Below, piece by piece: positions 3,739 through 56,019 of a stretch of 64,000 bases of DNA. The stretch is from a virus. Both the position numbers and the translations under genes were made by a program. How positions within the stretch are numbered: the stretch's first letter is position 1; every line of letters begins with the position of its first letter. The stretch covers positions 31,948 through 95,947 of the IMG/VR virus record IMGVR_UViG_3300037247_000847. One strand, given 5' to 3'. The notes beneath the pieces are model-generated. The model made no database searches, was not told the origin of the DNA, and was given only the letters and a program-made list of their open reading frames with translations.

Positions 3739-3836
3739 CCTCCAAGGCCCGCAGGTAGCGGAGACTAAATTAACGGGGTTTTTACCCTTGAAGGGTCAAA
3801 TCCTCCCCTGCAGGCCTTGGAGGCGGTCCTAAAATA
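3739..3836 (+). repeat. Dispersed ~100 bp structured repeat, copy 1
   Basis: 17-bp imperfect inverted arms (3739-3755 / 3807-3823) around an inner ACCCT-TGA-AGGGT hairpin; homologous to four other copies. Confidence 0.92.
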
Positions 3837-3907
3837 CTATCTAAGCTATTTATTAGGTCTTTTCGGTGGCTCCTTACATTATCTATGTAACCCCACTTAA
3901 GATCACC

Positions 3908-4034
3908 GAGGACTCAGACAGCCCACTGATGCGCTAACCACGTTCCAGCATTGCTGGCCCCCGTGGCTGAGTATTAAGTGCTCCCTGAGTAGAGGTCTTC
4001 GCTCTTGCACAATCGCAATAACAGGAGCGAAAAA
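3908..4034 (+). promoter_or_regulatory. Structured 5' leader of the capsid gene with an SD-sequestering hairpin
   Basis: TTCGCTCTTG (3998-4007) pairs with CAGGAGCGAA (4022-4031), which contains the AGGAG RBS; further upstream stems. Confidence 0.5.
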
Positions 4035-4928
4035 ATGAGTACGTCTATCGATCAGGCATTTATCACCTCTTTCGAGGCGAAAGTGCATGAAGTGTTTCAG
4101 CGGAAGGGAGCCTATCTCAAGGATGCCGTCCGTCTGAAAACCGATGTGGTTGGTGCCACTGCCGTCTTCCAGAAAGTCGGTAAGGGTACTGCTACGACAA
4201 AGTCTCGGCATGGTACAATCGTGCCGATGAACCAAGAGCATACAGCACCGTCTGTTACTCTGCAAGACTTCTATGCAGGTGACTGGGTGGACAAGCTCGA
4301 TGAAGCGAAGATTAACATCAATGATCGTGATGTGATCGCTTCAGGCGGTGCTCAGGCATTGGGTAGGAAGGTTGATGACCAGATTACTACGGTTCTCGAT
4401 ACTACTACCCAGGCCGCAGTCACCCTAACCCTTTCCAACAAAGGTAATGTCCTTGCCTCACTGTTGGAGTTGGTCGAAGCGGTGTGGGCGAATGACGTGC
4501 CAAATGATGGGGAGAACTTCGCTGTTATGACACCTCGTCTTTGGTCTCAGGCCATGACGCTCGATCAGTTCAACCGGGCGGAGTACGTAGGAGCTGATGG
4601 GATGGTCTTCAAGCAGGGACCTAAAATCGGTGTTGCTGCGTGGAAGAACTGGATGAACATCAAGTGGAAGATGCAGACTGGGCTTCCTGGAGCTGCTACG
4701 GCTTCAGGCAAGTCTTGGGTCTGGAACATGATGGCTATCGGCTACGCTATCGCGAAGTCGGCAGGTAATGTTGCTGGACGTGAGTCTGTTTCAGCGGACA
4801 TCACTTGGCACGGTGATCGTGCAGCTCACTTCGTCAACAACATGATGAGTGGTAATGCTGTCATGATCGACGATACGGGTGTCATTGAAGCAAACTTCAA
4901 TGATACAACCGCAATCGTTACGTCGTAG
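4035..4928 (+). CDS. Major capsid protein
   Basis: N-terminus MSTSIDQAFITSFEAKVHEVFQRKG; A..ALGRKVDDQI; AGGAG RBS before ATG 4035; follows the scaffold gene. Confidence 0.9.
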   Translation: MSTSIDQAFITSFEAKVHEVFQRKGAYLKDAVRLKTDVVGATAVFQKVGKGTATTKSRHGTIVPMNQEHTAPSVTLQDFYAGDWVDKLDEAKININDRDVIASGGAQALGRKVDDQITTVLDTTTQAAVTLTLSNKGNVLASLLELVEAVWANDVPNDGENFAVMTPRLWSQAMTLDQFNRAEYVGADGMVFKQGPKIGVAAWKNWMNIKWKMQTGLPGAATASGKSWVWNMMAIGYAIAKSAGNVAGRESVSADITWHGDRAAHFVNNMMSGNAVMIDDTGVIEANFNDTTAIVTS

Positions 4929-4942
4929 AGGAGGGATAGAAA

Positions 4943-5242
4943 ATGGCATACGTACCAGGAAATCTAGCTCTCCTTAACTCGGTCAATGGTTTTGAGTTGT
5001 ATCGGTATGATTCGACTGATGGCATTACGACCGTGGATACGGCGGGCTACTTCAACAACGTTGACGACTCGCTTCTGCTGCGTGCCGGTGCCTTGATCCA
5101 TGTGATCACGTGGGTTGGGGCGGTACGTACAGGGACTATTGGTGATGTGTCCCTTGTGATCGTCACAACCGTTGACAGTGAAGGTGTTGTCAACGTTTCG
5201 TCGGACATCTTCGAAAAGGGCATTTACTCAAGCGCCGATTAG
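4943..5242 (+). CDS. Putative capsid cement/decoration protein
   Basis: 99 aa beta-rich ORF right after the capsid gene; Y.STD..TTVDTAGYFN; GAGG RBS. Confidence 0.6.
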   Translation: MAYVPGNLALLNSVNGFELYRYDSTDGITTVDTAGYFNNVDDSLLLRAGALIHVITWVGAVRTGTIGDVSLVIVTTVDSEGVVNVSSDIFEKGIYSSAD

Positions 5243-5806
5243 ATGTCTCGAACTTCAAAGGGTGGGGGCCTTGCGTCCCCACCTTACTCTTTATCTCATT
5301 CTGGACCTGTACTGGTATGTGGTAATGCTTACAATCTACACGACGACCTCGAACGCGCCCGGCAGTTATATCCAAACGCACCTGTGATTGCCGTTAACGG
5401 TGCGACGGGAGAATTGCAGGCCTTTGCGTTGTATTCTAAACATCCAGAGAAGATGCCACAATGGATTAAACGGCAACGGCAGTTTGGTAATGACTTCACG
5501 GTTCATGGCTCGAAATACAATCCCGACTGTCCTTGGGTGAATCATTGGTGGGAAGATGCCAGAGGTGGTGGTGGTTCGGCCTGGGGTGCACGTAAATTAG
5601 CAACCCTAATGGGTTTCTATCCGGTGATCCTTTGTGGTGCACCTCTTGATCCTGGGGGCTATGTGTCAAGCCCCATTGCTAAACTGATGCGACGTGAGGA
5701 TGTGATTGACAATTTCAGACGGGAGATTGAGAGTGATGTTGAATGGCATGAGGGTGTGATGAGTATGTCGGGTTGGACACGAGAATTTTTAGGAGAGCCA
5801 AAATGA
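5243..5806 (+). CDS. Putative glycosyltransferase, CstII/Maf (DUF115)-like fold
   Basis: VLVCGNA...VIAVN N-terminal strands and GGSAWGARKLATLMGFYPVILCG resemble the G.S..A...A..MGF..I.L.G motif. Confidence 0.5.
   Translation: MSRTSKGGGLASPPYSLSHSGPVLVCGNAYNLHDDLERARQLYPNAPVIAVNGATGELQAFALYSKHPEKMPQWIKRQRQFGNDFTVHGSKYNPDCPWVNHWWEDARGGGGSAWGARKLATLMGFYPVILCGAPLDPGGYVSSPIAKLMRREDVIDNFRREIESDVEWHEGVMSMSGWTREFLGEPK
5259..5297 (+). terminator. Putative leaky intrinsic terminator after capsid/cement genes
   Basis: Stem AGGGTGGGGGC / GTCCCCACCTT followed by ACTCTTTAT. Confidence 0.45.
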
Positions 5807-6000
5807 AATATATACTGGTTACTATGCTGGCGCAGATTGCCGATGATGAACCCGCACCAAAAGTTCCTGATGATTGGCCAGATAAGTCATATTGGACTGC
5901 TGACTTTTTCAATAATTCTGAGTTAGTAAATAATGTCATGAAAGACGCTCAAGTGGCTATGGGTCGAAAAATCACGCAGGATGGTATGCCGGGATGCTAA
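5803..6000 (+). CDS. Hypothetical protein
   Basis: ATG at 5803 after a GGAGAG RBS, coupled to both neighbours. Confidence 0.55.
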   Translation: MKYILVTMLAQIADDEPAPKVPDDWPDKSYWTADFFNNSELVNNVMKDAQVAMGRKITQDGMPGC

Positions 6001-6545
6001 CAGTTGCCTGTGTATTATCCGAAGGTCCAAAGCGTGTCTACAATATAGAGCACGTTCGCCGCTTGCAAGATATGGTAACACAATATCTCAAAAGGCGTTA
6101 TCATTTTGTTTGTATTACTGATTCCCCATATCCTGGTTGGTGGGCTAAAGTCAGCCTATTCGAGCCAGGGCGTTTTAAAGGCCGTGTACTTTACCTCGAT
6201 TTAGACGTAACCATTGTTGGTTTTCTGAATGATTTAGCACTTTACCCTGCACCCTTTGTAGCTATCAAGGACTGGCTACGACCAACCATCAATTCCTCCG
6301 TTATGGCTTGGGATGCCGGTAAGATGGATCATCTGTTTACCAAGTTTGATAAATCCGTCATGGACCGGCTCAAGGGTGATCAGGATTGGATCACTGGGCA
6401 GATGCCTAAAGCTGAGACGTTTCCGCGAGATTGGTGTGTATCGTATCGAAAGTCTGTGAAGATGTTTGGTGTGGTACCACCTAATGCTAAAATAGTTGTA
6501 TTTCACGGGTTTCCTAAACCTTGGGAGGTTCCTGCAGTTGTTTGA
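5994..6545 (+). CDS. GT-A glycosyltransferase (GT8-like)
   Basis: WWAKVSLF, YLDLDV (DxD), NSSVMAW, GDQDWI, VFHG.PKPW. Confidence 0.8.
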   Translation: MLTVACVLSEGPKRVYNIEHVRRLQDMVTQYLKRRYHFVCITDSPYPGWWAKVSLFEPGRFKGRVLYLDLDVTIVGFLNDLALYPAPFVAIKDWLRPTINSSVMAWDAGKMDHLFTKFDKSVMDRLKGDQDWITGQMPKAETFPRDWCVSYRKSVKMFGVVPPNAKIVVFHGFPKPWEVPAVV

Positions 6546-7980
6546 TATAGTTTTAATCAATCCAGGTGCCACGCAAGCTATTTATCAGGGTCTTTCAGAT
6601 GAATTTACTGCTATTGAGCCTCCAACCTGGGCTCGTATGATTGCTGGCTGGCTCAGAGATCGTGATTACAAGGTTGCGATCATTGACCAAGAAGCGGAAG
6701 CACTTGGTACAGACGATATCTTGACAAGACTTGAGAAAATGGGTAATCCACTTGTCGCTATTATCGTATCTGGACACCAACCATCTGCGTCGACACAACA
6801 GATGGTGGGGGCACATACTGTTGCTAATGCTATTGGAACACAATGTACTACTATAATGGTAGGTAATCATCCGTCGGCCTTACCAGAGCGTACATTAGAG
6901 GAAGAACCAGTTGAGTTTGTATGTGATGGTGAAGGTCCTATAACCATTGCTGCAATTTTGGACGGTGTATCTATTGTAGACGTACCTGGTCTTGTTTGGG
7001 CAGTTGATCCAAAACTTGATCGTGTTTGCAACCCCCGTGCTCCGCTCATTCCAATGGATGAGCTCTATGGCGATGTATGGGATCTTCTGCCAATGGATCG
7101 CTACCGTGCTCATAATTGGCAGTGCTTTGATGGTAGCCCACGTCAACCCTACGCTTCGATCTACACCTCACTTGGTTGTCCGTTTAAGTGTTCGTTTTGT
7201 ATGATCAATATATTTCAGCATACTAATCGTTATCGTATGCGAGAGCCGAAAAGTGTGGTTGCGGAAATCGAGATGCTTTACACTGATCATGGTGTACAAA
7301 CTCTCAAAATTGCCGATGAGATGTTTGTCCTGAACGACCAGCATGTGACGGAAATTTGTGAAGGGTTAGCAAAGAAACCGTTCGTTGATGAACTTAACAT
7401 CTGGGCCTACGCTCGGATCGATACGGTAAAGTCCTACCAGCCGAGATTGCTGCGCCGTGCTGGCATTCGCTGGTTGGCATTAGGTATTGAGAGTGCTAGT
7501 TCACATGTTCGGAATGGTATCTACAAATCGTTCACCCAAGATGATATTTTTGCGGTTGTTAGAATGATTCAGGAGGCAGGTATCAACGTGATTGGCAATT
7601 TTATCTTTGGATTGCCGGATGATACATTAGAATCCATGCGTGAGACCCTGGATATGGCGGAGGAGCTAAACTGTGAGTTTGCGAATTTCTATGTGGCTCA
7701 AGGATATCCAGGTAGCAAATTATTTACAGAAACACCAGTTAAGGATTTGCCAGATAGTTGGGTAGGATATTCACAACACGCCCATGAAACGTGCCCTCTA
7801 CCAACAGCTACATTATCGAGTGCAGAGGTACTGAGTTTTAGAGATTGGGCGTTTCAACATTATTTTACTGGTGAACAGTATCTCGATATGATTAATAAAA
7901 AATTTGGTACTAATGTTGTAGAAGAAATCAAGCGTATGACATCTGTTAAGATGTCGCGAAAACTATTGGAAGTAACATGA
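6538..7980 (+). CDS. Cobalamin-binding radical SAM enzyme (class B methyltransferase-like)
   Basis: N-terminal B12-binding domain (GNHPSALP, GEG), GCPFKCSFC (CX3CX2C), LGIES, FIFGLP; TTG start after GGAGG. Confidence 0.88.
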   Translation: MFDIVLINPGATQAIYQGLSDEFTAIEPPTWARMIAGWLRDRDYKVAIIDQEAEALGTDDILTRLEKMGNPLVAIIVSGHQPSASTQQMVGAHTVANAIGTQCTTIMVGNHPSALPERTLEEEPVEFVCDGEGPITIAAILDGVSIVDVPGLVWAVDPKLDRVCNPRAPLIPMDELYGDVWDLLPMDRYRAHNWQCFDGSPRQPYASIYTSLGCPFKCSFCMINIFQHTNRYRMREPKSVVAEIEMLYTDHGVQTLKIADEMFVLNDQHVTEICEGLAKKPFVDELNIWAYARIDTVKSYQPRLLRRAGIRWLALGIESASSHVRNGIYKSFTQDDIFAVVRMIQEAGINVIGNFIFGLPDDTLESMRETLDMAEELNCEFANFYVAQGYPGSKLFTETPVKDLPDSWVGYSQHAHETCPLPTATLSSAEVLSFRDWAFQHYFTGEQYLDMINKKFGTNVVEEIKRMTSVKMSRKLLEVT

Positions 7981-8384
7981 TGGAAATAGTAATTGACTTT
8001 CCACCGATCTATGACGAGATAAAGTCTGTATTCCCAATGGCTGGTCGCGGTGTTATTTATGCTTGGGGCAACAAGATCTATAATCCATCTAATGTGTATA
8101 TTCCACTACAACTTATTGCTCATGAGCGGACGCACGGGCGAAGGCAAGGTAATGACGTGGATGGTTGGTGGCGTCGTTATTTAGATGAGAAGAAATTTAG
8201 GTTGGTTGAGGAGATATTAGCCCATGCTACCGAGATGGAGTGTTTGTTAGGTCCAAACCCGAATAGGCAGATGAGACGACAAGTTATTAAATCTACTGCA
8301 AAACGTCTTTCAAATCCACTTTATCGTTATGGTATTTCACGAGTACAAGCACAAGTTCTGTTAAAAAAGAAACTCGCAGCATGA
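7977..8384 (+). CDS. Small HExxH zincin-like protein
   Basis: LIAHERTHGRRQ plus a downstream E (VEEILAH). Confidence 0.55.
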   Translation: MMEIVIDFPPIYDEIKSVFPMAGRGVIYAWGNKIYNPSNVYIPLQLIAHERTHGRRQGNDVDGWWRRYLDEKKFRLVEEILAHATEMECLLGPNPNRQMRRQVIKSTAKRLSNPLYRYGISRVQAQVLLKKKLAA

Positions 8385-8400
8385 ACGGAAGGACGATGAT

Positions 8401-12468: not shown

Positions 12469-13445
12469 TTATTTCTAGAACTCCCTACAGAATTAGTTTC
12501 TTCGGTGGTGGCTCGGATTACGAGGCTCAGTATTCTCGGCATGGTGGCGCGGTCCTGAGTGCTACGATCGACAAATACTGTTACATCTCGCTCCGGCGCA
12601 TGCCACCGTTTCTTGGTAGTAAGTACCGGGTTTTTTGGTCGCAAATGGAGGCTGTCGACCACCGTGAGGACATTCAGCATGCCGGTGTGCGCGGGTGCCT
12701 TGAATTTCTCGATATCGATGATGGGATAGAAATAAACCATGCTGGTGATCTTCCGGCTCGAAGTGGGTTAGGTTCATCCTCGGCCTTTACCGTGGGTATG
12801 CTCTCTGCTCTACACGCGCTTCGTGGTGAAACACCTAGCAGAGCACAGCTTGCAAATGAGGCTATAAAGGTAGAGCAGGAGGTCTTGTGTGAAACTGTTG
12901 GTATTCAGGATCAAATTGCTTGTGCCTGGGGTGGGCTAAACATGATTGAGATCAACCGTGGGGGTAATTACGGTATCATACCTGTATTGTTGCCCGCGGA
13001 GCGCCGGACCATGCTAGAAAGTCATTTGATGTTGTTTTTTACCGGCATCCAGCGTCATGCATCTGAGATAGCTAAGACACAGATTGATAATACCGAGCGG
13101 AACGTAGATGCGCTTGGAGCGATTACCGAACAAGTGCGACAGGCGTTTGTTATTCTTAAGGAAGGAGATATGGATGAATTTGGTCATTTGCTTGGTGAGG
13201 GTTGGAAACTGAAGCGACAATTGAGTGACAAGATATCGAGCCCAGAGATTGATGCGCTATATGCTGCCGCCTGTGCTGCCGGTGCGTTGGGGGGAAAAGT
13301 GATTGGAGCCGGTGGTGGGGGCTTCATGCTTTTCTACGTTCCTCTTGAGCGCCAGACCGCTGTACGTGGGGCACTAGGGGGATTGATCGACATCCCGGTT
13401 CGGTTTGAGAATGGTGGTAGTCAGATTGTATTAAATGCCCAATAA
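12465..13445 (+). CDS. hddA: D-glycero-alpha-D-manno-heptose-7-phosphate kinase (GHMP family)
   Basis: RTPYRISFFGGGSDY, PARSGLGSSS, GIQDQ, GKVIGAGGGG. Confidence 0.88.
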   Translation: MIISRTPYRISFFGGGSDYEAQYSRHGGAVLSATIDKYCYISLRRMPPFLGSKYRVFWSQMEAVDHREDIQHAGVRGCLEFLDIDDGIEINHAGDLPARSGLGSSSAFTVGMLSALHALRGETPSRAQLANEAIKVEQEVLCETVGIQDQIACAWGGLNMIEINRGGNYGIIPVLLPAERRTMLESHLMLFFTGIQRHASEIAKTQIDNTERNVDALGAITEQVRQAFVILKEGDMDEFGHLLGEGWKLKRQLSDKISSPEIDALYAAACAAGALGGKVIGAGGGGFMLFYVPLERQTAVRGALGGLIDIPVRFENGGSQIVLNAQ

Positions 13446-30748: not shown

Positions 30749-31159
30749 GTGGCTGTGCATGAAGTAATTGAAAGTGGTATGATCAAACCACTAATGTATG
30801 GTGAGGTATCAACTACTTGTCCTTGTTGTGGTCATGTGTCATACTCAACAACTGGTTTAATCAGTTTTGATTATTGGAAGGGGTTGGTCTTTAAGAAAGA
30901 TAAACGGATATGTTTAGAGCCTATGGAAGCTGATCTGTTAAAGATCTTGCTAGATAATTGGCCTAAAATCTGCTCTAGAGAGAAATTATTAGTAGGTCTC
31001 TACGGGGGTAATTATTGTGAAAGAGTATCTAGTGATAATGTTGGTGTACTTATATCTAAGCTTAGACATAAGATCAAGATATTTGATATTGAAATAAAGA
31101 ACACTAAACGTCGGGGGTGGTTGCTTGTTAAGAAACCTACAGAACGACGATTTAATTAA
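30749..31159 (+). CDS. OmpR/PhoB-type winged-helix DNA-binding protein with CPCCG motif
   Basis: L...E..LL..L.......SRE.L...LYG....V.ISKLRHKI.....I......GW pattern. Confidence 0.75.
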   Translation: MAVHEVIESGMIKPLMYGEVSTTCPCCGHVSYSTTGLISFDYWKGLVFKKDKRICLEPMEADLLKILLDNWPKICSREKLLVGLYGGNYCERVSSDNVGVLISKLRHKIKIFDIEIKNTKRRGWLLVKKPTERRFN

Positions 31160-31171
31160 GAGATAAAGAGA

Positions 31172-31279
31172 CCCCTCACAAGCCCGTAGACCAACGAAAC
31201 CAAATTAGGTAGGGTTTTTACCCTTGAAGGGTCAAATCCTCGTCTGCAGGCCTTGGAGGCGGTCCTAAAATAGGTTTAG
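31172..31279 (+). repeat. Dispersed structured repeat, copy 2
   Basis: 105/108 identical to the reverse complement of copy 3. Confidence 0.92.
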
Positions 31280-31287
31280 ACCTACAT

Positions 31288-31327
31288 ACGAAGATAGCCC
31301 CGGCACCTGTAATGGATGCCGGGGCTA
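31288..31327 (-). terminator. Intrinsic terminator at the convergence of the two arms
   Basis: 11-bp perfect stem TAGCCCCGGCA / TGCCGGGGCTA (31295-31327) about 20 nt after the HU stop, followed by TCTT on the - strand. Confidence 0.7.
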
Positions 31328-31346
31328 CATTCACGACCGGGTTTTG

Positions 31347-31769
31347 CTAGATTTCTCCAGCAGCCGCTTTTTTGAGATTCACAAGGGCGCGAATTTTTAC
31401 CCGCTTAGACGCTGGGCGGCCCTTACTCGGGACCATCCCACCAGTTGCAGGTGAACGAACCATAGTACCCTTCTTAATCGCAGGTTTGGTTTTCAGAGTG
31501 ACTTTGAACAGTCTTGGCATCATGAATTCACCTGCACCACCTGGACGAATAGACTTTTGGATGGCGTCAGTAAGACCGTCCATTGTCGCAGTTATGAGTT
31601 TCTTCATACTCTTCGACGTTATTTCTGATGTGATCTCTTCTTCTTGTTCCTCAACGTAATTCACCAAATAACCAACGAGTTGTGATTTGGTCATCTTGGT
31701 CTTGATAGTCTTCGATCCTGCCATTTTAGCTGCAGGACGAGACCCTTTGTTCTTACGCTTTTTTGCCAT
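31347..31769 (-). CDS. HU/IHF-family DNA-binding protein
   Basis: MTKSQLV, F.MP.LFKV, KPA...MVRSPATG, PASKRVKIRAL..LK. Confidence 0.85.
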   Translation of the reverse strand: MAKKRKNKGSRPAAKMAGSKTIKTKMTKSQLVGYLVNYVEEQEEEITSEITSKSMKKLITATMDGLTDAIQKSIRPGGAGEFMMPRLFKVTLKTKPAIKKGTMVRSPATGGMVPSKGRPASKRVKIRALVNLKKAAAGEI

Positions 31770-31828
31770 TGGTAGTACTCCTTTAGAGGTTTGAGATTAC
31801 TTATCACTCTTATAATACAGGAAAACTA

Positions 31829-32209
31829 CTAAATCTTGTTAGATAGTCTCTTACGGTGACGAGGGATAATAGATTTATCTCTTCCGAGTATACCTTGTAA
31901 CCATGGATCCCATCCTGGTAACCCAGCTCGAAAACAGGCTTCTATACTAGCATACATGGAGCCATTCTTATTTATTATGTCAGCACGAACTTGTTTGTAT
32001 TGAATACCAGGGAACTGAGTTTCCCAACTTTTAACAACACGTTTTGCCTCTCGGACATTTGGGAATGTAATTGCAGAATCTTGGCCAACTGGATCGAGCT
32101 TGGACCAAAATCCTAAACCCATAGCTGATCCTAGATAGATACCCTCACTTCTGGTGTATATAATTATTTGTCTACCTAGTCGTCTTCTATCCAACATCGT
32201 GTTCTCCAA
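31829..32209 (-). CDS. Hypothetical protein
   Basis: 126 aa ORF in the - operon. Confidence 0.65.
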   Translation of the reverse strand: MENTMLDRRRLGRQIIIYTRSEGIYLGSAMGLGFWSKLDPVGQDSAITFPNVREAKRVVKSWETQFPGIQYKQVRADIINKNGSMYASIEACFRAGLPGWDPWLQGILGRDKSIIPRHRKRLSNKI

Positions 32210-32215
32210 TATTAA

Positions 32216-32806
32216 TTAAGTTCGTCCTAGCCACACTTTTCCAAAACGGTCAATCTGACGTAATTCATCTGGTGTTTTAGTTTCTTGGTCTGGAACCTTA
32301 AGCTTGGAAGGTTGCGCCCCTGTTTTCTGGTCTTGATATTGACCAGAATAAGGTTGCTCTGTATGTTCGTCTAGATAATGAAACACAATCTGCGCGATAG
32401 GTGTACCTGCATTGAGAGTTAAGTCTTCTTTATCCAGCTGACGTCCTTGTGTAATTTGTTCGTCTCCTTGTTTCCAGGAATGGAGTAGGTGATATGAAAT
32501 TTCCAATGTTAGATATCCTCCCCACCCAGGATCTATAAAGGTATTCTGGACCAAAACACCAGCTCTTGCTAGTGAAGACTTGTCATGTACTACACCACAG
32601 ACGTTGTCTGGCATAGTAAAGTGTTCCATAGTAGATGCGAGTGTGACCAAACCTTCGTATAGATAAGTATCTTCTGCTAATCTCACATCATACGATGCTG
32701 CACCACAACCATAGCTAAGGTTAGTCGATTCGTGTATGGTTCTCTCACAAAATGGTAGTAAGATTTTAGCTTTCTTGATCGATTGGTACGACAACACACT
32801 CATCAC
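32216..32806 (-). CDS. dcd: dCTP deaminase (dUTPase-like trimeric fold)
   Basis: SYG...ASYDVRL, DKSSLARAG, IDPGWGGYLTLE, GTPIAQ, YSGQYQDQ. Confidence 0.88.
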   Translation of the reverse strand: MMSVLSYQSIKKAKILLPFCERTIHESTNLSYGCGAASYDVRLAEDTYLYEGLVTLASTMEHFTMPDNVCGVVHDKSSLARAGVLVQNTFIDPGWGGYLTLEISYHLLHSWKQGDEQITQGRQLDKEDLTLNAGTPIAQIVFHYLDEHTEQPYSGQYQDQKTGAQPSKLKVPDQETKTPDELRQIDRFGKVWLGRT

Positions 32807-32819
32807 ATTTCCTCTCTAT

Positions 32820-33329
32820 TTATCTTATCGCTGTTGATAACACAGTAAGTCCCCGACGTAATAATTCAATATCAGATTTCTCGTCCTTGCGGAGAGTATT
32901 GATGATAGCCGTCTCAACATCCTTGCCGCAAGCCTTTAGTATATTATACACGTCATCATATTTCTTTTTGACTTTAGCAAACTTCTTTTGGGCAGATTTA
33001 GATAGGTCTTCGATCGCAGGTGAAGTAAATTTCTCATGTCCAGAGGCTTGTACACCGGAAGAGCGGTGCAACATTGTTTCATAATTACGGGTTACTTTGC
33101 TAAGATGCTCAGCAGCCTCATATTGGTCTCTTGTAATAACCCCAACAAGATATAGTCGTCCGTAGTGCCATTCAGCTTCCTGTCGTGTTGCTAATCTACG
33201 GATCATTTGGCTAGGATAGGTCTCTAACAGGTTTAATAATTCTTGTTCACGATGTTGAAGTTCATATGCTCTAATAACAGGTTTATTACGTCTACCTGAT
33301 ATAGTCTTTTGCTTTTTGTGTTCTGTCAT
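32820..33329 (-). CDS. Hypothetical phage protein (possible regulator)
   Basis: 169 aa; GRLYLVGVITRDQYEAA pattern. Confidence 0.65.
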   Translation of the reverse strand: MTEHKKQKTISGRRNKPVIRAYELQHREQELLNLLETYPSQMIRRLATRQEAEWHYGRLYLVGVITRDQYEAAEHLSKVTRNYETMLHRSSGVQASGHEKFTSPAIEDLSKSAQKKFAKVKKKYDDVYNILKACGKDVETAIINTLRKDEKSDIELLRRGLTVLSTAIR

Positions 33330-33344
33330 AACTAATCCGATACG

Positions 33345-33452
33345 CTAAACCTATTTTAGGACCGCCTCCAAGGCCTGCAGACGAGGATTTGACCCTTCAA
33401 GGGTAAAAACCCTACCTAATTTAGTTTCGTTGGTCTAGAGGCTTGTGAGGGG
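33345..33452 (-). repeat. Dispersed structured repeat, copy 3
   Basis: Inverted near-identical partner of copy 2; begins 3 nt after the nrdJ stop. Confidence 0.92.
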
Positions 33453-33454
33453 AT

Positions 33455-35842
33455 CTAACCACAATTGGAGAAATTACAGGACAAACACGTTTGGCATCCT
33501 TCCTTACTAATTAGTGCTGGAGCTTGACATTGTGGGCACTGCTCCCCGACAATATTTTCCGAACTGTCATCAGCTAAGACTGTAACTTTTCCACTATTCT
33601 CGATACCAATCTTCAAGTGTGAAATCTTGTCAGAGAGTTGGACTTTGAGGTTACGACCCAGAATATCGTTGTGATACTTTGTTAGGTGATCTTCCAAGAC
33701 TGATCCGATTAGGGCTACTAGACTAGGAACATATTTCTTTCCTACCCAAGCACCCCCTAGACTAGAGTGAACCTCCTGTAGCTCCTTTATGATAAACATA
33801 AAGTCTCCACCTCGTCGGAAGATAGCAGAGATACTTCTAGTAAGAGCCATGATCCATTCTTGGTGACTAGCATCCTTGGTGTTAATAAATACCTCAAATG
33901 GACGACTGTATCCATGCTCGTCGATACAATTATTGATGGTAATGTAGTACGCGTGCTCTTGCCATTTGGTCTTGTAAGTTTTACCCGACAGTTCTGTTGG
34001 TCTTTTGATTATTGGAGATAATTGAGGTTGGTCTTTGGGTGTAGCTACAGAAAGTATAGAACCTCTAACTTTCTCCAAGATTTCGGACGGATGATACGTA
34101 GTGCATCCTTTTAGTTTCATATCATACGCAGTGATATAGACATCTTTGAAGTTCTCAAAGGTTATTTCTTTGGGACAATTAATAGTCTTGGAGATTGAGG
34201 CGTCTACGTATTCTTGACAGGTGGCTTGCATGTTTAGATGATCTTGTACTGTAAGATCATTAGTTGTGACCATGTAGTCGGGCATTTCTTTTATTATCTC
34301 TTCGTCGTCTCTGTCCGTTAGGTTCTTTACTTCCTTATAAAGTCGATAACCATAATCCTCTACCTGCTCGAATTCCTTGAACGATCCGTCTGCTTGACGC
34401 ATTTTTCTGTTGTATCTCCAAGCAAAGGTTGGTTCCAAGCCAGAGGAGACATTTCCGTAGTAAATTGATGTCGTACCTGTTGGGGCTATTGTTAGAAGTA
34501 CACTGTTTCGTATACCTATTCGAGATGAAATTTCATCTCGAATAGGTATTGGAAGCCTTTTGATAAATTTTCCTTGCATGTATTTGTCTACATCAAATAA
34601 TGGAAATTGACCACGTTCTAGAGCTAGATCAATTGATGCTAAGTAGGCACTATTTCTAATCTTTTCCATTACGAGACGAGTGGTTATGACAGCCGTCTCG
34701 CTACCATAACGTATTCCAAGTTGTTGAAGCATATTTCCTAGACCAGTTATCCCTAATCCGGTACGTCTTTTGTTCATAGACTCCATACGCTGTTCCGAAA
34801 TAGGATAGTGGGTTTCGTCAAGAACATTATCTAAGAACCTCATGGCTATTTTAGATACTTCTCCAATGCGATCAATTTTGAGAGAAGCATATTCGGAGAA
34901 TGGATTTTTGACCATAACGGCTAGATTAATAGCTCCTAGATCACAAGCACCATGTGGGGGTAAACTTTGCTCTCCGCACGGATTTGTGCAATTGATCTTT
35001 TCGCAGTACCACAAATTGTTTTGCTCATTGATACGGTCAATGAATATCACCCCCGGCTCTGCATAATCGTAGGTAGAGCGCATTATCTTTTCCCACAATT
35101 CTCTTGCGGGAAGTTTGTGGTATATGTACCATATCACATCATCCCCCTGTGTTATTTCTCCTACATGTTGTCCATCTAACCTTGGTTTGTTAAACCCAAG
35201 TAACCACTCTTTATCTTCTTTCACAGCCCTCATGAATTTGTCTGAGACAAGAATTGAAATATTGAAATTGGTTAAACGACCAGGAGTATGTTTTGCTTCG
35301 ATAAATTCCAACACATCTGGGTGATCACAAGCAAGTGTGGCCATCATGGCTCCTCGACGCCAGCCTGCAGCCATGATCGTTCCACACATAGTGTTCCATA
35401 AATCCATAAAGGTTATTGGTCCACTAGATGCGGTATTACGCTGACGTACTAATGCGCCTTTAGGACGAAGGGTTGAAAAATCCATTCCAATCCCACCACC
35501 CATCTGCTGTGTCAAGGAGGCTACTTCGAGAGACTGCATAATACCCATTATGTTTGGTTCATCTGACTCTGTCACCATGGAGTCTTCAATCGTAGGTGAG
35601 ACAAAACAGTTGATCAAAGTTACTTTCCTACCAGTTCCAGCTCCCGCATGAATGCGCCCAGCTGGACACCATTCAAGACTTTTCATTACGTTTAATGCGT
35701 CTCCGAAGTGGGGTCCATCCATGTCGTGTAGGTAGACACCTCTACAAACTCGTTCGTGTGTATCCCAAATCGTCTCTTCGTCTCCATTACGGTACTTTTC
35801 ACGCCAAACAATATTCGTTATTTCCTGCGTCTCTAACTTCAT
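33455..35842 (-). CDS. nrdJ: Class II (adenosylcobalamin-dependent) ribonucleotide reductase
   Basis: PAGRI, TLINCFV, GGGIG.DFS.LRP.G, RRGAMM, TNPCGEQ, TIAPTGT, C-terminal RPFEVFIN domain and EGC..C..C..S.C; no beta subunit nearby. Confidence 0.9.
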   Translation of the reverse strand: MKLETQEITNIVWREKYRNGDEETIWDTHERVCRGVYLHDMDGPHFGDALNVMKSLEWCPAGRIHAGAGTGRKVTLINCFVSPTIEDSMVTESDEPNIMGIMQSLEVASLTQQMGGGIGMDFSTLRPKGALVRQRNTASSGPITFMDLWNTMCGTIMAAGWRRGAMMATLACDHPDVLEFIEAKHTPGRLTNFNISILVSDKFMRAVKEDKEWLLGFNKPRLDGQHVGEITQGDDVIWYIYHKLPARELWEKIMRSTYDYAEPGVIFIDRINEQNNLWYCEKINCTNPCGEQSLPPHGACDLGAINLAVMVKNPFSEYASLKIDRIGEVSKIAMRFLDNVLDETHYPISEQRMESMNKRRTGLGITGLGNMLQQLGIRYGSETAVITTRLVMEKIRNSAYLASIDLALERGQFPLFDVDKYMQGKFIKRLPIPIRDEISSRIGIRNSVLLTIAPTGTTSIYYGNVSSGLEPTFAWRYNRKMRQADGSFKEFEQVEDYGYRLYKEVKNLTDRDDEEIIKEMPDYMVTTNDLTVQDHLNMQATCQEYVDASISKTINCPKEITFENFKDVYITAYDMKLKGCTTYHPSEILEKVRGSILSVATPKDQPQLSPIIKRPTELSGKTYKTKWQEHAYYITINNCIDEHGYSRPFEVFINTKDASHQEWIMALTRSISAIFRRGGDFMFIIKELQEVHSSLGGAWVGKKYVPSLVALIGSVLEDHLTKYHNDILGRNLKVQLSDKISHLKIGIENSGKVTVLADDSSENIVGEQCPQCQAPALISKEGCQTCLSCNFSNCG

Positions 35843-42869: not shown

Positions 42870-43451
42870 TTATTGAGGACGCTTACGATGACGCTTGACA
42901 CTCGTCTCTCGTCGATCTTTCATCTTACCTGTTATCCGTTCTACTTCAGCCTCCTGTCTTTCCTTACGCATACCTGAGGCTGATCGAGAGGAGTAGTACG
43001 AAGCAAGGAAAAGATCAACCATATCTCTAAGGGCGTAAGACCGATGCCTAAACGATGTGGTTAAAGCTTCCAACCGTCGTTGTGTATGACGTGCGTTAAG
43101 TTGTTTGATCACCATCTTTTTACGATCTTCATCACTAGCGATAATAGCCTTGATCGCATTCTCTGTGATACGATCACCCTCGGTCTCAGCATCTGCTCTT
43201 GCTTGAGTATCGAGGTCAGCTTCTAACTCCTTGATCTGTTCATCTAGCGACTCTACTTGAGACTTAGCTAGTGATGCTGCTTCAGCTACCTCACCGTATA
43301 ATTCTGGTTGCTGCTCGACTTCATCATCCAGCGCATGTTTATCAATTTTCAACCTCTGGCGAAGTTCGTCTGGATCAAATCTCAGCTCCAATTCATAGCT
43401 AGGCCATTCGGTAGCTTTCTTCTTAGTCTTCTTGATCTTTCTTCTTGCCAT
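42870..43451 (-). CDS. Putative UvsY-like recombination mediator
   Basis: LKIDKHALDDE..QQP.LY helical pattern; context near SSB and RecA. Confidence 0.5.
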   Translation of the reverse strand: MARRKIKKTKKKATEWPSYELELRFDPDELRQRLKIDKHALDDEVEQQPELYGEVAEAASLAKSQVESLDEQIKELEADLDTQARADAETEGDRITENAIKAIIASDEDRKKMVIKQLNARHTQRRLEALTTSFRHRSYALRDMVDLFLASYYSSRSASGMRKERQEAEVERITGKMKDRRETSVKRHRKRPQ

Positions 43452-43469
43452 CTTCCTATTCCCTTTTAT

Positions 43470-43564
43470 CCTATTTTAGGACCGCCTCCAAGGCCTGCAG
43501 GCGAGGATTTGACCTTGAAAGGGTAAAACCCCGCTTAAATTTAGTCTCATTAGCCTGCGGGCTT
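43470..43564 (-). repeat. Dispersed structured repeat, copy 4 (more diverged)
   Basis: Core CTGCAGGCCTTGGAGGCGGTCCTAAAATAGG identical to copies 2/3. Confidence 0.9.
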
Positions 43565-43590
43565 CTTATTAGGTTAATACAGTGGGCCTT

Positions 43591-43782
43591 TTAGATATTG
43601 GGCCAAAGGTCGTCACGATGTCGCCGTAACAATTCTTTTATCTTAATCTCGGTTTCCTCGTCGTGGTCCAACATTAGTAATCTAACACGTGTAGCAATAA
43701 TTATTTTATCACGAAATGGGGTCAAGCCGATAATTTCATCAGGTTCATGATCATCTATTGTTAGTAGCATCTTAATTTTCAT
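43591..43782 (-). CDS. Hypothetical protein
   Basis: 63 aa ORF, AAGGA RBS. Confidence 0.55.
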   Translation of the reverse strand: MKIKMLLTIDDHEPDEIIGLTPFRDKIIIATRVRLLMLDHDEETEIKIKELLRRHRDDLWPNI

Positions 43783-44891: not shown

Positions 44892-44910
44892 ACCCTTTCT
44901 TCCTCTCTAA

Positions 44911-47807: not shown

Positions 47808-47811
47808 AGTA

Positions 47812-48093: not shown

Positions 48094-48110
48094 TTCTCAT
48101 CTCCTCTGTG

Positions 48111-49196: not shown

Positions 49197-49201
49197 GTTG
49201 A

Positions 49202-49819: not shown

Positions 49820-49877
49820 TTCTCTTCCTTTCTTTGTTCAAGGTTCAACCGTTTGCATCCTTTAGTTAGTAATACAG

Positions 49878-50954: not shown

Positions 50955-50955
50955 G

Positions 50956-51222: not shown

Positions 51223-51246
51223 GGCTCATACCCTCCTCGTAAGTGG

Positions 51247-52071: not shown

Positions 52072-53263
52072 TTCTCAGACCTTTCTGTTGACTAGATATT
52101 ACCAAATCAGCAAATTCATCGAAACCAACTATGTCTTTGTCAGATAGGTTGCTCACTACATAGTCTCTAGTTCTCGTCATTTGAGTATTGGTAAGATCCA
52201 ATAGCCAACGTGTGCGCTCCTCTGACATATCTATTTGTAAGTCTTGATACAACTGTAGCATACTCTCAAAGACATTAGAAGTTAGGTCACTACAGTTTAA
52301 TAATACAGTGTCCCGAGTCTCATTACAAATTGTATTATAGAAAGCAACGAATTCTGTACATTCCCTCCTTCGGAACTTCACGTTCGCTTTGTGCCATTCA
52401 ATAGATAATGATTTATCAATTCCGGTCTTAGTCAACGTGCTTTCTCGTGAAAGTGCTACATAGGAGGATAACATATCTTTGTGGTCACGTACCAAAAACA
52501 GGAGCTTTGCATACGGAAAGGACTTGAACAATGCACGGTAAAATGACACATCTTCGTTTTCCTTTGTGACCCAAATTCTGTCCTTGCCTCGGTAATATGC
52601 TACTTTTCTTATTACACGCATAAAGACTTTTAGTAGACGTTCCTGGTTTTTACTATTGAGAGTGTTGAAGTGAGTTAACTTATCCAAAAGTGAGGTAAAC
52701 GGAAATCTCCGGAATACGAAATAATGATGATAGAATTTCTCTTCTAGAAATATACCATGTTCTTCATGATTACCATAAAGGTGAGGATGCATCTGACTGG
52801 CTAGAAGACCAGCAGTATCCTTATTAGACCAATAATTCCAACCGTTGATCCAATCTCTAAGTCTTAAACAATCTAATAAGTACCATATACATATATAAGG
52901 CCAACGCCATTCTAGATAGGTAACTGCAAAGAACACATCCTTATCATCGGCCAACAACCGATGTAGGAAGGTAGAACCACTTCTGGGTTGGCTAATAATG
53001 AAGACAGGATCCTTGAGACTTACGCAGTTCAGTTGTCTACTAAATATCACTTCATCTAATAACCACAAGGTACAATGTAGTGGGCTCAATACTAGGTCAC
53101 GCAGCAAGTATGTGAGTAGTCGCAGCTTGACACGTTTAGGAAGCTGTTTGTCTCTACACGTTGCTCGGAAGACACACCAATACGAACCCCAGTGTGATAG
53201 GGGATTGATATAGCCTAGAAGAACAGCTACTGTGCAGATTAATATAATAATAGAGAGAAGCAC
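52052..53263 (-). CDS. PAPS-dependent sulfotransferase family protein
   Basis: 5'-PSB loop PVFIISQPRSGSTFLHRLL; 3'-PB motif LVRD..DMLSSY; hydrophobic N-terminus. Confidence 0.78.
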   Translation of the reverse strand: MLLSIIILICTVAVLLGYINPLSHWGSYWCVFRATCRDKQLPKRVKLRLLTYLLRDLVLSPLHCTLWLLDEVIFSRQLNCVSLKDPVFIISQPRSGSTFLHRLLADDKDVFFAVTYLEWRWPYICIWYLLDCLRLRDWINGWNYWSNKDTAGLLASQMHPHLYGNHEEHGIFLEEKFYHHYFVFRRFPFTSLLDKLTHFNTLNSKNQERLLKVFMRVIRKVAYYRGKDRIWVTKENEDVSFYRALFKSFPYAKLLFLVRDHKDMLSSYVALSRESTLTKTGIDKSLSIEWHKANVKFRRRECTEFVAFYNTICNETRDTVLLNCSDLTSNVFESMLQLYQDLQIDMSEERTRWLLDLTNTQMTRTRDYVVSNLSDKDIVGFDEFADLVISSQQKGLRNGNGNS

Positions 53264-53275
53264 TGCTCATTCCCT

Positions 53276-53440
53276 CTATTTCGTACGCCAGAACTCTATG
53301 GCCATCTGGATGTCATGAGTCAGTTGGTTGCAAAGATTGGTGTGAGATTCATCGTCTGCCTCCATGACGATTTCGCATCCACGTTCAGCCCGCCGTTCAT
53401 GGACGTGGGCGATGGCTCTGGCATTTTCTTTCGGTGTCAT
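53276..53440 (-). CDS. Small hypothetical protein (below the cutoff)
   Basis: Hand translation MTPKENARAIAHV...EFWRTK (54 aa), AAGGAGG RBS. Confidence 0.55.
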   Translation of the reverse strand: MTPKENARAIAHVHERRAERGCEIVMEADDESHTNLCNQLTHDIQMAIEFWRTK

Positions 53441-53450
53441 CACGCCCTCC

Positions 53451-53681
53451 TTAGTTTTCGTCGTCCTCGGTCGTCATTTCAACAGGCTGAACCTGGGCAG
53501 CATCCTCCTCCCCACAGAAGAATTCGCCAGCGGAGTTGAATGCCATCACCCGATTGTTGTCGTGATGATACTCGCTCTTGAAGCAGAGCAATTCCGGGTT
53601 CTCCTGTGTCACGAACGGTCCTGGTGGTGCTTCCTTTAGTGAGCAGGGCCAGCCTATCGGTGTGATGATTTTCTGGATCAT
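53451..53681 (-). CDS. Hypothetical protein
   Basis: 76 aa, AGGAGG RBS, ATGA-coupled. Confidence 0.6.
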   Translation of the reverse strand: MIQKIITPIGWPCSLKEAPPGPFVTQENPELLCFKSEYHHDNNRVMAFNSAGEFFCGEEDAAQVQPVEMTTEDDEN

Positions 53682-54298
53682 GTTAGCCTCCTTTCTAACA
53701 ACTGATATATTGCACGCATGGGTTTACGATAGTCAATGATAACTGTTTCTTCACCCTCACTCTCGAACTTCTTACGTGTAGCTTCGGTTGCAATGAACTT
53801 TTTCTCTACATGCTTAGTTCCACTACTACCCCTTATTCTACCAGAAGCAGCAGTCTTATTTTTGTTACGAGCTTCGATCCGTTCGTAGCAGACTTCTAGT
53901 GGGGTATCCATATAGCACCAAGTAATACCTCCGAGCTCTTGTGATAATTCATAAAACCTTCTGAATAGACCACTGACGATAAAACCCTCAAAGAATACAT
54001 GACCTTTACCTGCAAATTTTCTTACTATATCACATACATCATCCAATCCACCAAAGTGCTTCATGACATAATCTGCACCCCCAGACATAGTTACATAGGA
54101 GCCGACGAAATAGACTGGGTCTCCCTTATACATACCTTTATACCCTATTACCCGCCCTATGAGACGACCTGGCTCCGGGTCTGCGTATAGAGGAGTAGCG
54201 TTGCTCTTCTTCATCAGCTCCCTAATAATCCAAGACTTGCCTGATCCGTTGCAGCCACGAATATTCACGATGCGATATTTATTGCGTTTTCTAGACAC
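53678..54298 (-). CDS. P-loop nucleotide kinase of base-modification clusters
   Basis: NIRGCNGSGKS, GGAD, FEG, DTPLEVC.ERI..R. Confidence 0.8.
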   Translation of the reverse strand: MSRKRNKYRIVNIRGCNGSGKSWIIRELMKKSNATPLYADPEPGRLIGRVIGYKGMYKGDPVYFVGSYVTMSGGADYVMKHFGGLDDVCDIVRKFAGKGHVFFEGFIVSGLFRRFYELSQELGGITWCYMDTPLEVCYERIEARNKNKTAASGRIRGSSGTKHVEKKFIATEATRKKFESEGEETVIIDYRKPMRAIYQLLERRLT

Positions 54299-54373
54299 CG
54301 TTTTTTCCTCCGTCTTCGGTGCATATGATGCGTCTAGTTTAATGGTTTGTAGGGCTTCTCCCTGATGTCTTTT

Positions 54374-54724
54374 TCAATTAGACGTTGGCGCTAGACGTTG
54401 GCGCAACTCCTCGTGGCGGATCTTAATGGTACGCATCATCTCGGCTTCACCATCTGGGCCAAGGTTATTCAACAACTTGTCGTAGTCTACATCAATACGG
54501 CTGCCAAACTTGCGGCTGATACCGGCTGCCTCCACAGTCGAGACAAAGGCACGGAGCGTATCCTGCTGTTCAATTAAACCCTTATGGCTTGCCGCCGCCG
54601 CACCAAGCGCGTTAATCACCCGCTGCAACGTCAGATTAATAGCAATTTGCTGTGCCAATAAGTTTTCGAGCACCTGTGGCAAGCTAAATTGCACCCGGAA
54701 AAAACACCTCAGTCCCTTCAACAT
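54374..54724 (-). CDS. Hypothetical protein (paralogous segment with 1822..2106)
   Basis: ATG at 54724 after AGGAGG. Confidence 0.6.
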   Translation of the reverse strand: MLKGLRCFFRVQFSLPQVLENLLAQQIAINLTLQRVINALGAAAASHKGLIEQQDTLRAFVSTVEAAGISRKFGSRIDVDYDKLLNNLGPDGEAEMMRTIKIRHEELRQRLAPTSN

Positions 54725-54987
54725 TGTTTCATCCTCCTTCTTCGGTTCAGCATAATGCGTCCGAGTTCCTTGACACTCACTTCTACAGCTCCTGCCTTCA
54801 CGGCTAGCGCGCGCTTGGATAGACATATGTCAAAATGGCTGCGAGGTGTGCCTGGATATTGATGCCACTTGCGTTGTACACCAATCTTGTCTACCATAGT
54901 TAACAGCTCTTCGTCGCTATCGGCTATCATGTGACACATGATTAGGCGTCCGAAAGGAGCACGCATGTTGTCTACTCGAACGGTCAT
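54718..54987 (-). CDS. DUF4031-like protein
   Basis: V.VD......GR..MCHMIADS.EEL......IG..RKW.Q....HFD....KR..A...GA. Confidence 0.75.
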   Translation of the reverse strand: MTVRVDNMRAPFGRLIMCHMIADSDEELLTMVDKIGVQRKWHQYPGTPRSHFDICLSKRALAVKAGAVEVSVKELGRIMLNRRRRMKQC

Positions 54988-55913
54988 AACGTTTTTACCA
55001 CCTTGACGTTACCAAAATCGTTTACCAACCTCCTTCTATCTCTATAGACACCTTTAAGTTGTCCCCGAGGTTCTGACCATCCCCCAAATTCACCTAATAG
55101 TCTTATATCAAAAATCACCCCTCTTGCTTTCCATAATATTTTAGATAGGTTGTTGTCATGTAGCTTTAGTTGTTTAAGGTCTCTGTCAATATCATGACCG
55201 TGGTAGTATTTTCCGTTAGTCAATGACTGCCAATCACATAACATACTTTCTAGTTGGTCTAACCCGTTGACTGGCGCACCGAAGTCTATAGTTACTCGTA
55301 ATAGATCTCGATGTACTTTATTATTGTTAGCACATATGTCCCAACCTAGTCCTGTTAGTGTGTTAAGACCAGCTATCGGCCCTGCTGTCGCGCCTGGCTT
55401 TGTTCCAATATCAGGAGCGGTGATGGGGTATGAATGAACGAATTTCATCATGTCACAGAACTTGTAGCTAGACCAAGGTCCATGATAGGGTAATTCCGAA
55501 ACAGCTTCTCTAATTTTAGCCCAACTCTTTTCACGGTTATTACTGACTAGGTTGTCTACCCATGAAACTAAATCCCCATCGGTGAGTGATACCAATGTAT
55601 TTATCTGATTAAGTGCCTGCTCGTTGCCTCGAAAGCAACGACGTTGTTTGAAATAGGGAAGGTCATTACTCCAGTCCTTCTTTCGGATGATATCTGGTTT
55701 TGGATATCGTTTCCAAGCTTGAACAGCACTACCAAGATGGTAGTACAATAAATAAATACATGTGAACCAAAGTGCAGTGTTACGGTCTAATTTGAGTTTC
55801 TTATACATGTGTCTTAATATAGGGAATTGAGGGTCCAAATCTCCGGAGAGGATCATTGCGCGGCCGAACCGGGCAAAGTCTCTTAGTTCTTTAGATTTAT
55901 CTTTGTACCACAT
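54984..55913 (-). CDS. Amino acid:DNA transferase (aGPT-Pplase2/AADT, glycosylase-like fold)
   Basis: GDLDP.F, RRCFRG, GPWSSYK..D, ESMLCDW...YY.GHDI; cluster context. Confidence 0.7.
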   Translation of the reverse strand: MWYKDKSKELRDFARFGRAMILSGDLDPQFPILRHMYKKLKLDRNTALWFTCIYLLYYHLGSAVQAWKRYPKPDIIRKKDWSNDLPYFKQRRCFRGNEQALNQINTLVSLTDGDLVSWVDNLVSNNREKSWAKIREAVSELPYHGPWSSYKFCDMMKFVHSYPITAPDIGTKPGATAGPIAGLNTLTGLGWDICANNNKVHRDLLRVTIDFGAPVNGLDQLESMLCDWQSLTNGKYYHGHDIDRDLKQLKLHDNNLSKILWKARGVIFDIRLLGEFGGWSEPRGQLKGVYRDRRRLVNDFGNVKVVKTL

Positions 55914-55919
55914 AATAGA

Positions 55920-56019
55920 CCTATCTTAGGACCGCCTCCAAGGCCTGCAGGGGAGGATTTGACCCTTTAAGGGTAAAAACCCCGTTAATTTAGTCTCCGT
56001 TACCTGCGGGCCTTGGAGG
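55920..56019 (-). repeat. Dispersed structured repeat, copy 5
   Basis: About 3 differences from copy 1 over ~98 bp; overlaps the 3' end of the upstream ORF. Confidence 0.92.

Follow-up and report, generated by a model that had tools for sequence, protein, structure and literature searches.

The uncultured virus record IMGVR_UViG_3300037247_000847 is a complete genome of 95,947 bp with 127-bp terminal repeats, and the stretch analyzed here (the window) comprises its bases 31948-95947, 64,000 nucleotides (nt) in all. The genome is that of a podovirus-like phage with a T4-like replisome. In family scans of its open reading frames (ORFs), the portal and tail tube proved T7-like and the capsid was assigned to family PF19821; the scans also identified a ribonucleotide reductase, a DNA-hypermodification cluster and T4-like replication and recombination genes (UvsX, UvsY, single-strand-binding protein, clamp, clamp loader, SbcCD, primase and helicase). 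The genes form two blocks, one running rightward from genome position 13456 to window position 31160, the other leftward from genome 12600 to 1 and on from the end of the record down to window 31347, and the split in GC skew coincides with the split between them. Dispersed among these genes are seven copies, six canonical and one divergent, of a hairpin cassette of ~110 nt, referred to below as the element. It represents a real, previously unclassified family of structured elements that is conserved in a clade of sediment phages, and its most probable role is to mark the points at which long messages are cut, ended or stabilized. Coordinates are window positions unless given as genome positions.

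Seven sense copies between genes

The initial annotation of the window had reported five dispersed copies, all of which were recovered, and a sixth and a seventh were added from the genome outside it. The 25-mer CTGCAGGCCTTGGAGGCGGTCCTAA occurs exactly five times in the window and not once in 100 shuffled sequences. All seven copies are intergenic and lie in the sense orientation of their neighboring genes, an arrangement with a chance probability of about 0.8% (hand-calculated as (1/2)^7). The five window copies start 0-30 nt past a stop codon, with copy 5 having the stop inside the element, so that the co-orientation with transcription and the location at or after a stop codon proposed for them hold in every case. 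A covariance model built from 16 sequences (R2) revealed no further copies in the genome.

Copy 1 (3729..3842, plus strand, R2 score 124 bits) lies in the gap between a scaffold-like gene (2625-3722) and the major capsid gene (4035-4928). Its 5′ arm CCTCCAAGGCC is at 3739-3749, GCAGG follows at 3751-3755, and the 3′ arm and tail occupy 3807-3836. Copy 2 (31164..31278, plus strand, 119 bits) is located past the last rightward gene (30749-31159), which carries a Trans_reg_C domain, and no gene lies downstream on the same strand. The remaining copies are on the minus strand. Copy 3 (33346..33460, 117 bits) comes directly past the ribonucleotide reductase large-subunit gene (33455-35842), with the next ATG (33329) 17 nt on and small genes downstream. 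Copy 4 (43466..43580, 100 bits) follows an ORF of 63 amino acids (aa; 43591-43782) downstream of the clamp-loader gene and ends 15 nt ahead of a UvsY-like gene (42870-43451). Copy 5 (55916..56029, 117 bits) separates a 189-aa ORF from an amino-acid:DNA-transferase-like gene (54984-55913) and ends 3 nt ahead of the ATG of the latter; its 5′ arm extends into the end of the former (55990-56559), which has the TAA of the conserved loop as its stop codon.

Copies 6 and 7 lie outside the window. Copy 6 (genome 5322-5437) is canonical and is found between the last small early ORF and a hammerhead ribozyme. Copy 7 (genome 17980-18095) is divergent, scores 21.3 bits with R2 (E value 6e-4, filters off) and is placed at the end of a small leftward islet within the rightward block. 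The head of the 50-kb rightward block carries no copy.

Copies 2 and 3 constitute an inverted pair of ~95% identity (31164-33460) enclosing a 2.07-kb segment that holds the last four leftward genes, including one for a dCTP deaminase (32216-32806), and inversion or recombination might use the pair as a substrate. Copy 2 is followed, where the two gene blocks converge, by a GC-rich 10-bp hairpin (AGCCCCGGCA...TGCCGGGGCT, ~31296-31325) with no U-tract on either strand.

Fold and conservation in related phages

The phage has no close cultured relative, with portal identity not exceeding 32%. Metagenomic homologues of the protein encoded upstream of copy 1 are 50-78% identical, and a metagenome scan yielded 17 loci for a comparison that covers the copy-1 site, the scaffold-like/capsid gap. 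A search with a model of the phage's own six canonical copies detected exactly one site in each of 10 relatives (67-105 bits), in all 10 directly past the homologous scaffold-like gene and ahead of the capsid gene. The copy-1 site is occupied in 10 of 12 relatives, at 64-86% identity, and the other two contigs end inside the upstream gene. Conservation between orthologs is 77-88% for the element and 75-87% for the adjacent coding DNA. Relatives of the clamp-loader gene, which would have led to orthologs of copy 4, were not found in IMG/VR.

Covariation was assessed in a 16-sequence alignment, for which the structure was written by hand, using 500 shuffles and controls with slid partner columns. 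Compensatory double changes occur at 7 of 18 pairs of the outer stem (21 cells), a count that none of the shuffles reaches and that far exceeds those of the slid controls. Likewise, 87.5% of outer-stem cells are paired, versus 29-57% with the partner column slid. Examples include C-G, U-G and U-A at one pair, C.A, U-A and C-G at a mismatch position, and G-C and A-U at the pair noted first. The covariation inferred in the initial annotation from the copies of this genome amounts, within the genome, to one fully compensated pair (G-C to A-U) and one neighbor, in one subfamily; its real support comes from the 10 orthologs in related phages. In the same alignment the inner helices are conserved and never changed on both sides. 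The element is under selection, including selection for outer pairing, and it is base-paired and orientation-dependent.

The outer duplex (H1) spans 17-23 bp in the best copies, and the ends of the element form an imperfect palindrome of up to ~23 bp (TAGGACC-CCTCCAAGGCC-C-GCAGG and its complement). The proposal of a 5′ arm that drifts while it keeps pairing is borne out only in part. Copies 1 and 5 have 17 bp paired, copy 5 possessing the best outer stem (GACC + 11 + 5 bp); copies 2 and 3 have three mismatches within the outer 11 bp; and copies 4 and 6 have lost the outermost part of the stem, copy 6 pairing TAGGACCG with CGGTCCTA instead. An irregular duplex of ~20 bp or more is reached in copies 1, 5 and 7, in L017 and in the distant relative L009, and one of ~9-14 bp in copies 2, 3, 4 and 6. 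Folding z-scores range from -3.9 to -6.6 for copies 1, 2, 5 and 7, L009 and L017.

The annotated inner hairpin, ACCCT-N3-AGGGT, is conserved but shows no compensatory change, and an alternative with two hairpins fits about equally well. RNAalifold favors the latter fold, composed of GGGG/CCCU and a T-loop-like GGG-UCAAAU-CCU. Copy 4 has a weakened inner hairpin, and a C.A mismatch is present in this copy and in three orthologs. A short second hairpin or AU-rich tail starts one nucleotide past the duplex, with pairing of the form CCUA-AAA-UAGG in most paralogs, CCUAA...UUAGG in copy-1 orthologs and CUAGG...UCUAG in L009. In nine copy-1 orthologs the TAGG partner is replaced and the downstream UUAGG partner is kept. 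A pairing of the loop with the tail, A(G/A)AC with (G/A)U(C/U)U, is compatible with 12 of 16 sequences; a pseudoknot of this kind was rejected, as the association is not significant (Fisher p ~0.08, hand-calculated and uncorrected for kinship).

Two members of the family lack the apical domain of the others. In copy 7, a stem of its own (10+10 bp, fully compensated) is combined with a different apical part and the tail GGGTCTAAAAATAGGTCTAGG. L009, in which the upstream protein is 58% identical, carries at the copy-1 site a 30-bp irregular hairpin and a short tail hairpin; its sequence is similar in patches only, and TAAAAT is lost while the tail hairpin is kept. In both, the apical domain is replaced and the conserved loop is absent, and a duplex of 20-30 bp and a short tail hairpin are retained, indicating that the duplex and tail are the persistent features. 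All members share the sense orientation, a long irregular duplex directly behind a stop codon and, past the duplex, a short second hairpin or AU-rich tail.

The two halves of the element differ in how uniform they are within the genome. The six paralogs differ most in the 5′ arm, where they are 58% identical, and in the internal loop (70%); the apical domain (92%), 3′ arm (94%) and tail (97%) are nearly uniform. Paralog similarity stops ~8-10 nt past the TAAAAT. In 11 copy-1 orthologs, by comparison, the two arms diverge alike (77% and 81%). Copies 2 and 3 have a 5′ arm (CCTCACAAGCC) that is complementary to a 3′ arm variant carried by most relatives, GGCTTCTGAGG, and that does not fit the 3′ arm of its own genome, GGCCTTGGAGG. 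Only two positions in the 3′ half differ between subfamilies, and exactly these are compensated in the 5′ arm. A 3′ half that is uniform within a genome and free to change between genomes suggests either that a genome-specific factor reads it or that gene conversion homogenizes it, the latter being plausible in a phage with T4-like recombination genes.

The 3′ arm and tail GGAGGCGGTCC (3813-3830 in copy 1, and present in every copy) agree with GGAGGTGATCC, the full complement of the 3′ tail of 16S rRNA, at 9 of 11 positions. No start codon follows GGAGGCGGTCC, and the 5′ arm correspondingly resembles the rRNA tail itself.

Two non-coding blocks were observed at the copy-1 site of this and other phages. 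The capsid gene has a non-coding leader of ~170 nt (3866-4034) that is conserved in sequence with L009:3085-3265 and has no Rfam match, and it is a candidate structured 5′ untranslated region. More distant relatives have a different conserved non-coding block in the scaffold-like/capsid gap (L010:8330-8530, L011:3390-3580 and L031:590-790), with the organization GACGGCTCACCCG..AAGGCCCCGTCAAAG ... GAGAGGGCAT..ATG; the L031 block is without an Rfam match.

The statement that the element belongs to no recognized family stood up to database searches. Searches with Rfam 15, whose families include hammerhead, twister, twister-sister, pistol, hatchet and HDV-like ribozymes as well as tRNA, covered the window and the remaining genome sequence, the element by itself and two relatives. 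In the window they gave no match at the gathering threshold or at an E value of up to 0.5, and for the element at an E value of up to 10 they returned only hairpin-shaped microRNA models far below threshold. No match to the element was obtained by blastn against 50,697 phage records or by three exact or degenerate pattern scans of IMG/VR. A pattern scan of 185,579 bacterial and archaeal species genomes gave four hits, approximately the number expected by chance, none of which fits the covariance model. Covariance modeling and the Rfam and phage-sequence searches, both suggested in the initial annotation, yielded covariation among orthologs and no family match. With 16-17 members, a covarying stem and no counterpart in Rfam, the family is a well-supported structured RNA candidate. 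A tRNA-like reading, based on the T-loop-like GGGUCAAAUCC and a 19-nt loop the size of a D region, was dropped because a D stem is missing, the arms are of insufficient length and models give no match; ARAGORN found no tRNA.

Proposed intercistronic punctuation and alternative readings

The genome encodes a second class of intercistronic RNA structure. Three type II hammerhead ribozymes (RF02276; genome 12523-12602, 10705-10774 and 9247-9316, minus strand) score above the Rfam gathering threshold of 37 bits, and a fourth (genome 5248-5317, minus strand) falls just below it at 35.9 bits. They precede cassettes of a Shine-Dalgarno sequence and ATG in the early leftward operon, and Rfam finds no others in the genome, the window included. 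Because the early operon is punctuated by Rfam-supported hammerheads, transcript cutting between cistrons appears to be already part of the strategy of this phage. The element resembles these hammerheads as an intercistronic, sense-oriented form of RNA punctuation, but it has no hammerhead core and is associated with different operons.

One hammerhead also bears on how the copies arose. Copy 6 ends 4 nt ahead of the last hammerhead, and the sequence CGTATCG past copy 3 is a remnant of the hammerhead start found after copy 6 (seven shared bases beyond the element). Homology between copies 3 and 6 runs 12 nt beyond the element, into the hammerhead. The shared remnant implies that copies arise by segmental duplication with variable ends rather than by precise transposition, and that the ancestor of copies 6 and 3 was an element-plus-hammerhead unit.

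A duplex after a stop codon, a tail hairpin and a sense orientation are the anatomy of an intercistronic processing or stability site, which leads us to favor a punctuation cassette. Our leading, if tentative, interpretation is that the element is a transcribed cassette for intercistronic processing and stability, with an additional sequence-specific signal in its 3′ half. The element would be transcribed within long polycistronic messages and would act in RNA as clade-specific intercistronic punctuation. H1 may be the target of a host double-strand-specific endonuclease of the RNase III type; alternatively or additionally, it may block 3′-to-5′ exonucleases. By either route the upstream message would end in a protective hairpin, and the downstream message would start in the invariant 3′ arm and tail (GGAGGCGGUCCUAAAAUAGG), which could form a short hairpin, H2. 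The cassette might thereby serve the middle and late operons as type II hammerheads serve the early operon. The near identity of the 3′ half among paralogs could then reflect a signal read by a genome-specific factor, or uniformity through gene conversion. Copy 2, which has no downstream gene, is better suited to a role at 3′ ends than to that of a promoter. Whereas the copies and their conservation are observed, we infer cleavage, stabilization and the identity of the nuclease; of the functions offered for the element in the initial annotation, an RNase III-type site is probably the best single mechanism.

In phage T7, about ten mutually similar RNase III hairpins between genes process and stabilize messages, and the cut hairpin stays on the upstream message. 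The present element resembles these sites (R0.3 to R18.5) in comprising mutually similar sense hairpins between genes, with an irregular duplex of about two helical turns in its best copies, in a phage that has T7-like portal and tail genes. Unlike the T7 sites, it is about twice as long, its apical domain is conserved, its 19-nt loop is asymmetric, and its invariant tail is single-stranded or forms a short hairpin. There is no sequence similarity between the two, and cleavage of the element is a prediction. In kind, the element belongs with the intercistronic hairpin cassettes of phages, among which it is clearly distinct, with an unexplained sequence-specific 3′ half.

Several observations weigh against this interpretation. 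RNase III has little sequence specificity, which leaves the paralog asymmetry of 92-97% versus 58% unexplained, and it does not account for the strong conservation of the unpaired loop GAGACUAAAUUA. The outer stem is only ~9-10 bp in copies 4 and 6, which is short for RNase III, and at copy 6 the adjacent hammerhead already supplies a cut. No RNase III (PF14622) was found among the phage genes. Finally, the outer stem contains 18 G.U and 15 A.C combinations, and by this parity it offers no evidence on its own for the RNA strand over DNA. The case for RNA consequently rests on orientation, position, inner G.U pairs and tail pairing.

The main alternative, possible though less probable, is a cassette resembling the PeSLs of T4-type phages, ~100-bp intergenic repeats made of a stem-loop and a promoter (PMC2839356, PMC4122927). 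The hairpin would attenuate or end upstream transcription, and the invariant 3′ half would be a promoter that restarts the next module, with TAAAAT as a -10-like hexamer, a start ~7 nt downstream and an upstream part read by a phage activator or sigma-like factor; the repeats, at ~100 bp, could double as recombination sites. Such a promoter, co-evolving with a phage factor, would be uniform within and divergent between genomes as the 3′ arm is, and the 5′ arms of copies 2 and 3, matching the variant of relatives and not their own, fit the same picture. Paralog similarity ends near the predicted start, the next ATG lies within 3-17 nt of copies 3, 4 and 5, and the TAAAAT of copy 6 is 9-11 nt ahead of the hammerhead. 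In addition, copy 1 precedes the capsid gene, a common place for strong internal promoters, the hammerhead remnant at copy 3 indicates segmental duplication, and the phage shares with PeSL-bearing phages a T4-like replication and recombination module (UvsX and UvsY among its genes).

However, PeSLs have consensus sigma-70 -35 and -10 hexamers and an AT-rich upstream region, and the element has only the -10-like TAAAAT. A -35 hexamer is absent: the best candidates match at 2-4 of 6 positions, and the region, which lies inside the 3′ arm, covaries with the 5′ arm as a stem rather than keeping its sequence. A simple sigma-70 promoter scan calls none of the copies. The element also differs from PeSLs in its much larger stem-loop and its conserved orthologous sites. 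Neither PHROGs nor Pfam recognized a sigma factor or polymerase in 79 ORFs, and the T7-like RNA polymerase domain PF00940 was not found in the phage. A promoter in copy 2 would fire into the convergent junction, and none of the copies heads the rightward block. L009 has kept the tail hairpin and not TAAAAT, and the UUAGG partner retained in nine copy-1 orthologs points to RNA pairing in the tail. An intrinsic-terminator scan called no copy either, and no U-tract follows either hairpin. The hairpin promoter raised in the initial annotation, if of the N4 type, has no polymerase to support it, as PF00940 was not found.

It is unlikely that the element defines a new autonomous class of RNA, either a self-cleaving ribozyme or the site of a co-evolving phage RNA-processing factor, that would combine with the hammerheads in a two-tier, temporally partitioned system of punctuation. 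The narrower proposal, in which a self-cleaving ribozyme of a new class or some other autonomous RNA with catalytic or ligand-binding activity punctuates messages alongside the hammerheads, is improbable. Covarying stems together with highly conserved unpaired nucleotides (the loop GAGACUAAAUUA, the apical domain and the tail) are what such an RNA might show, and the possible loop-tail pairing would be in keeping with it, but the covariation of that pairing is not significant. The genome is rich in hammerheads, one of them 4 nt from a copy, and bacterial self-cleaving ribozymes tend to cluster, such that proximity has led to the discovery of new classes (PMC6765202). That same hammerhead, following the ancestral type of copies 6 and 3, would make a second cutter redundant. 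Moreover, copy 7 and L009 retain the stem and tail without the conserved apical domain and loop, and no Rfam ribozyme model matches even at an E value of 10.

We regard as very improbable each of three further readings, the first of which was the option, listed in the initial annotation, of a non-autonomous mobile element. A miniature inverted-repeat transposable element (MITE) or repetitive extragenic palindromic (REP) sequence, spread through intergenic sites, would explain the ~23-bp imperfect palindrome as terminal inverted repeats, the several dispersed copies and the short similar words flanking some of them. Like REPs, bacterial interspersed mosaic elements (BIMEs) and MITEs, the element is an imperfect palindrome in intergenic, transcribed DNA, and REPs stabilize upstream messages. 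Yet there are seven copies only, all in the sense orientation, and copy 1 is fixed at its site in 10 relatives, its divergence following theirs. Judged by eye, flanking repeats are inconsistent in offset and length and thus do not qualify as target-site duplications, and the ends of copies are not fixed, as is evident from the seven bases that copy 3 shares with the hammerhead. No true match exists in the bacterial and archaeal genomes or in the phage and IMG/VR collections searched.

A second doubtful reading is that of a cis-acting antiterminator RNA like put of phage HK022, which would modify the polymerase and be renewed every 10-25 kb along two blocks of ~45 kb. Its two stem-loop architecture is shared by the element, with one nucleotide between the stem-loops, and the copies are in sense orientation and spaced along very long operons of a phage in which no polymerase of its own was found, leaving transcription to that of the host. 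The position of put after a promoter is not seen, however: the copies are not just downstream of promoters, copy 2 is at an operon end, and cleavage by the hammerhead after copy 6 would detach the RNA from the polymerase.

Equally hard to credit is a signal in DNA, in single-stranded or cruciform form, such as a recombination hot spot or a signal for priming or replication on the lagging-strand template. The outer stem, without G.U bias, pairs equally well in DNA and on both strands, the orientation of the copies follows GC skew as well as transcription, and SbcCD-like and T4-like recombination genes are present. Against this, the inner domain contains conserved G.U pairs (22 G.U versus 5 A.C) and scores far lower on the opposite strand, and the copies are strictly intergenic and tight against stop and start codons.

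Phages that depend on the host polymerase and have operons of 45 kb must set message boundaries and stoichiometry after transcription, and this single genome appears to use two RNA devices, hammerheads in the early operon and a structured cassette elsewhere. The biological role of bacterial and phage self-cleaving ribozymes is, to our knowledge, largely unknown, and the presence of two devices in one genome makes it testable by within-genome comparison. The uniformity of the 3′ half within the genome, set against its divergence between genomes, points to a phage factor still to be identified or to very active concerted evolution.

Other features of the genome

Just upstream of the portal region lies an ORF of 1379 aa (L008:9246-13385, corresponding to genome 25245-29384, plus strand) that matches no Pfam or PHROG family. 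Neither this orphan protein nor any of the six frames contains the DxDGD polymerase motif. The divergent gene blocks are separated by a non-coding stretch of ~850 nt (L007:12600-13456; L007 coordinates are genome coordinates) that contains a tandem repeat of GGGCTATTGGCACCAC in two copies (13106-13140) and a 17-bp terminator-like hairpin (13408-13445). Elsewhere in the genome, at L007:2052-2256 on the minus strand, a tRNA gene (48 bits) adjoins a sub-threshold match to the Y-RNA-like YrlA (34.8 bits; gathering score 69).

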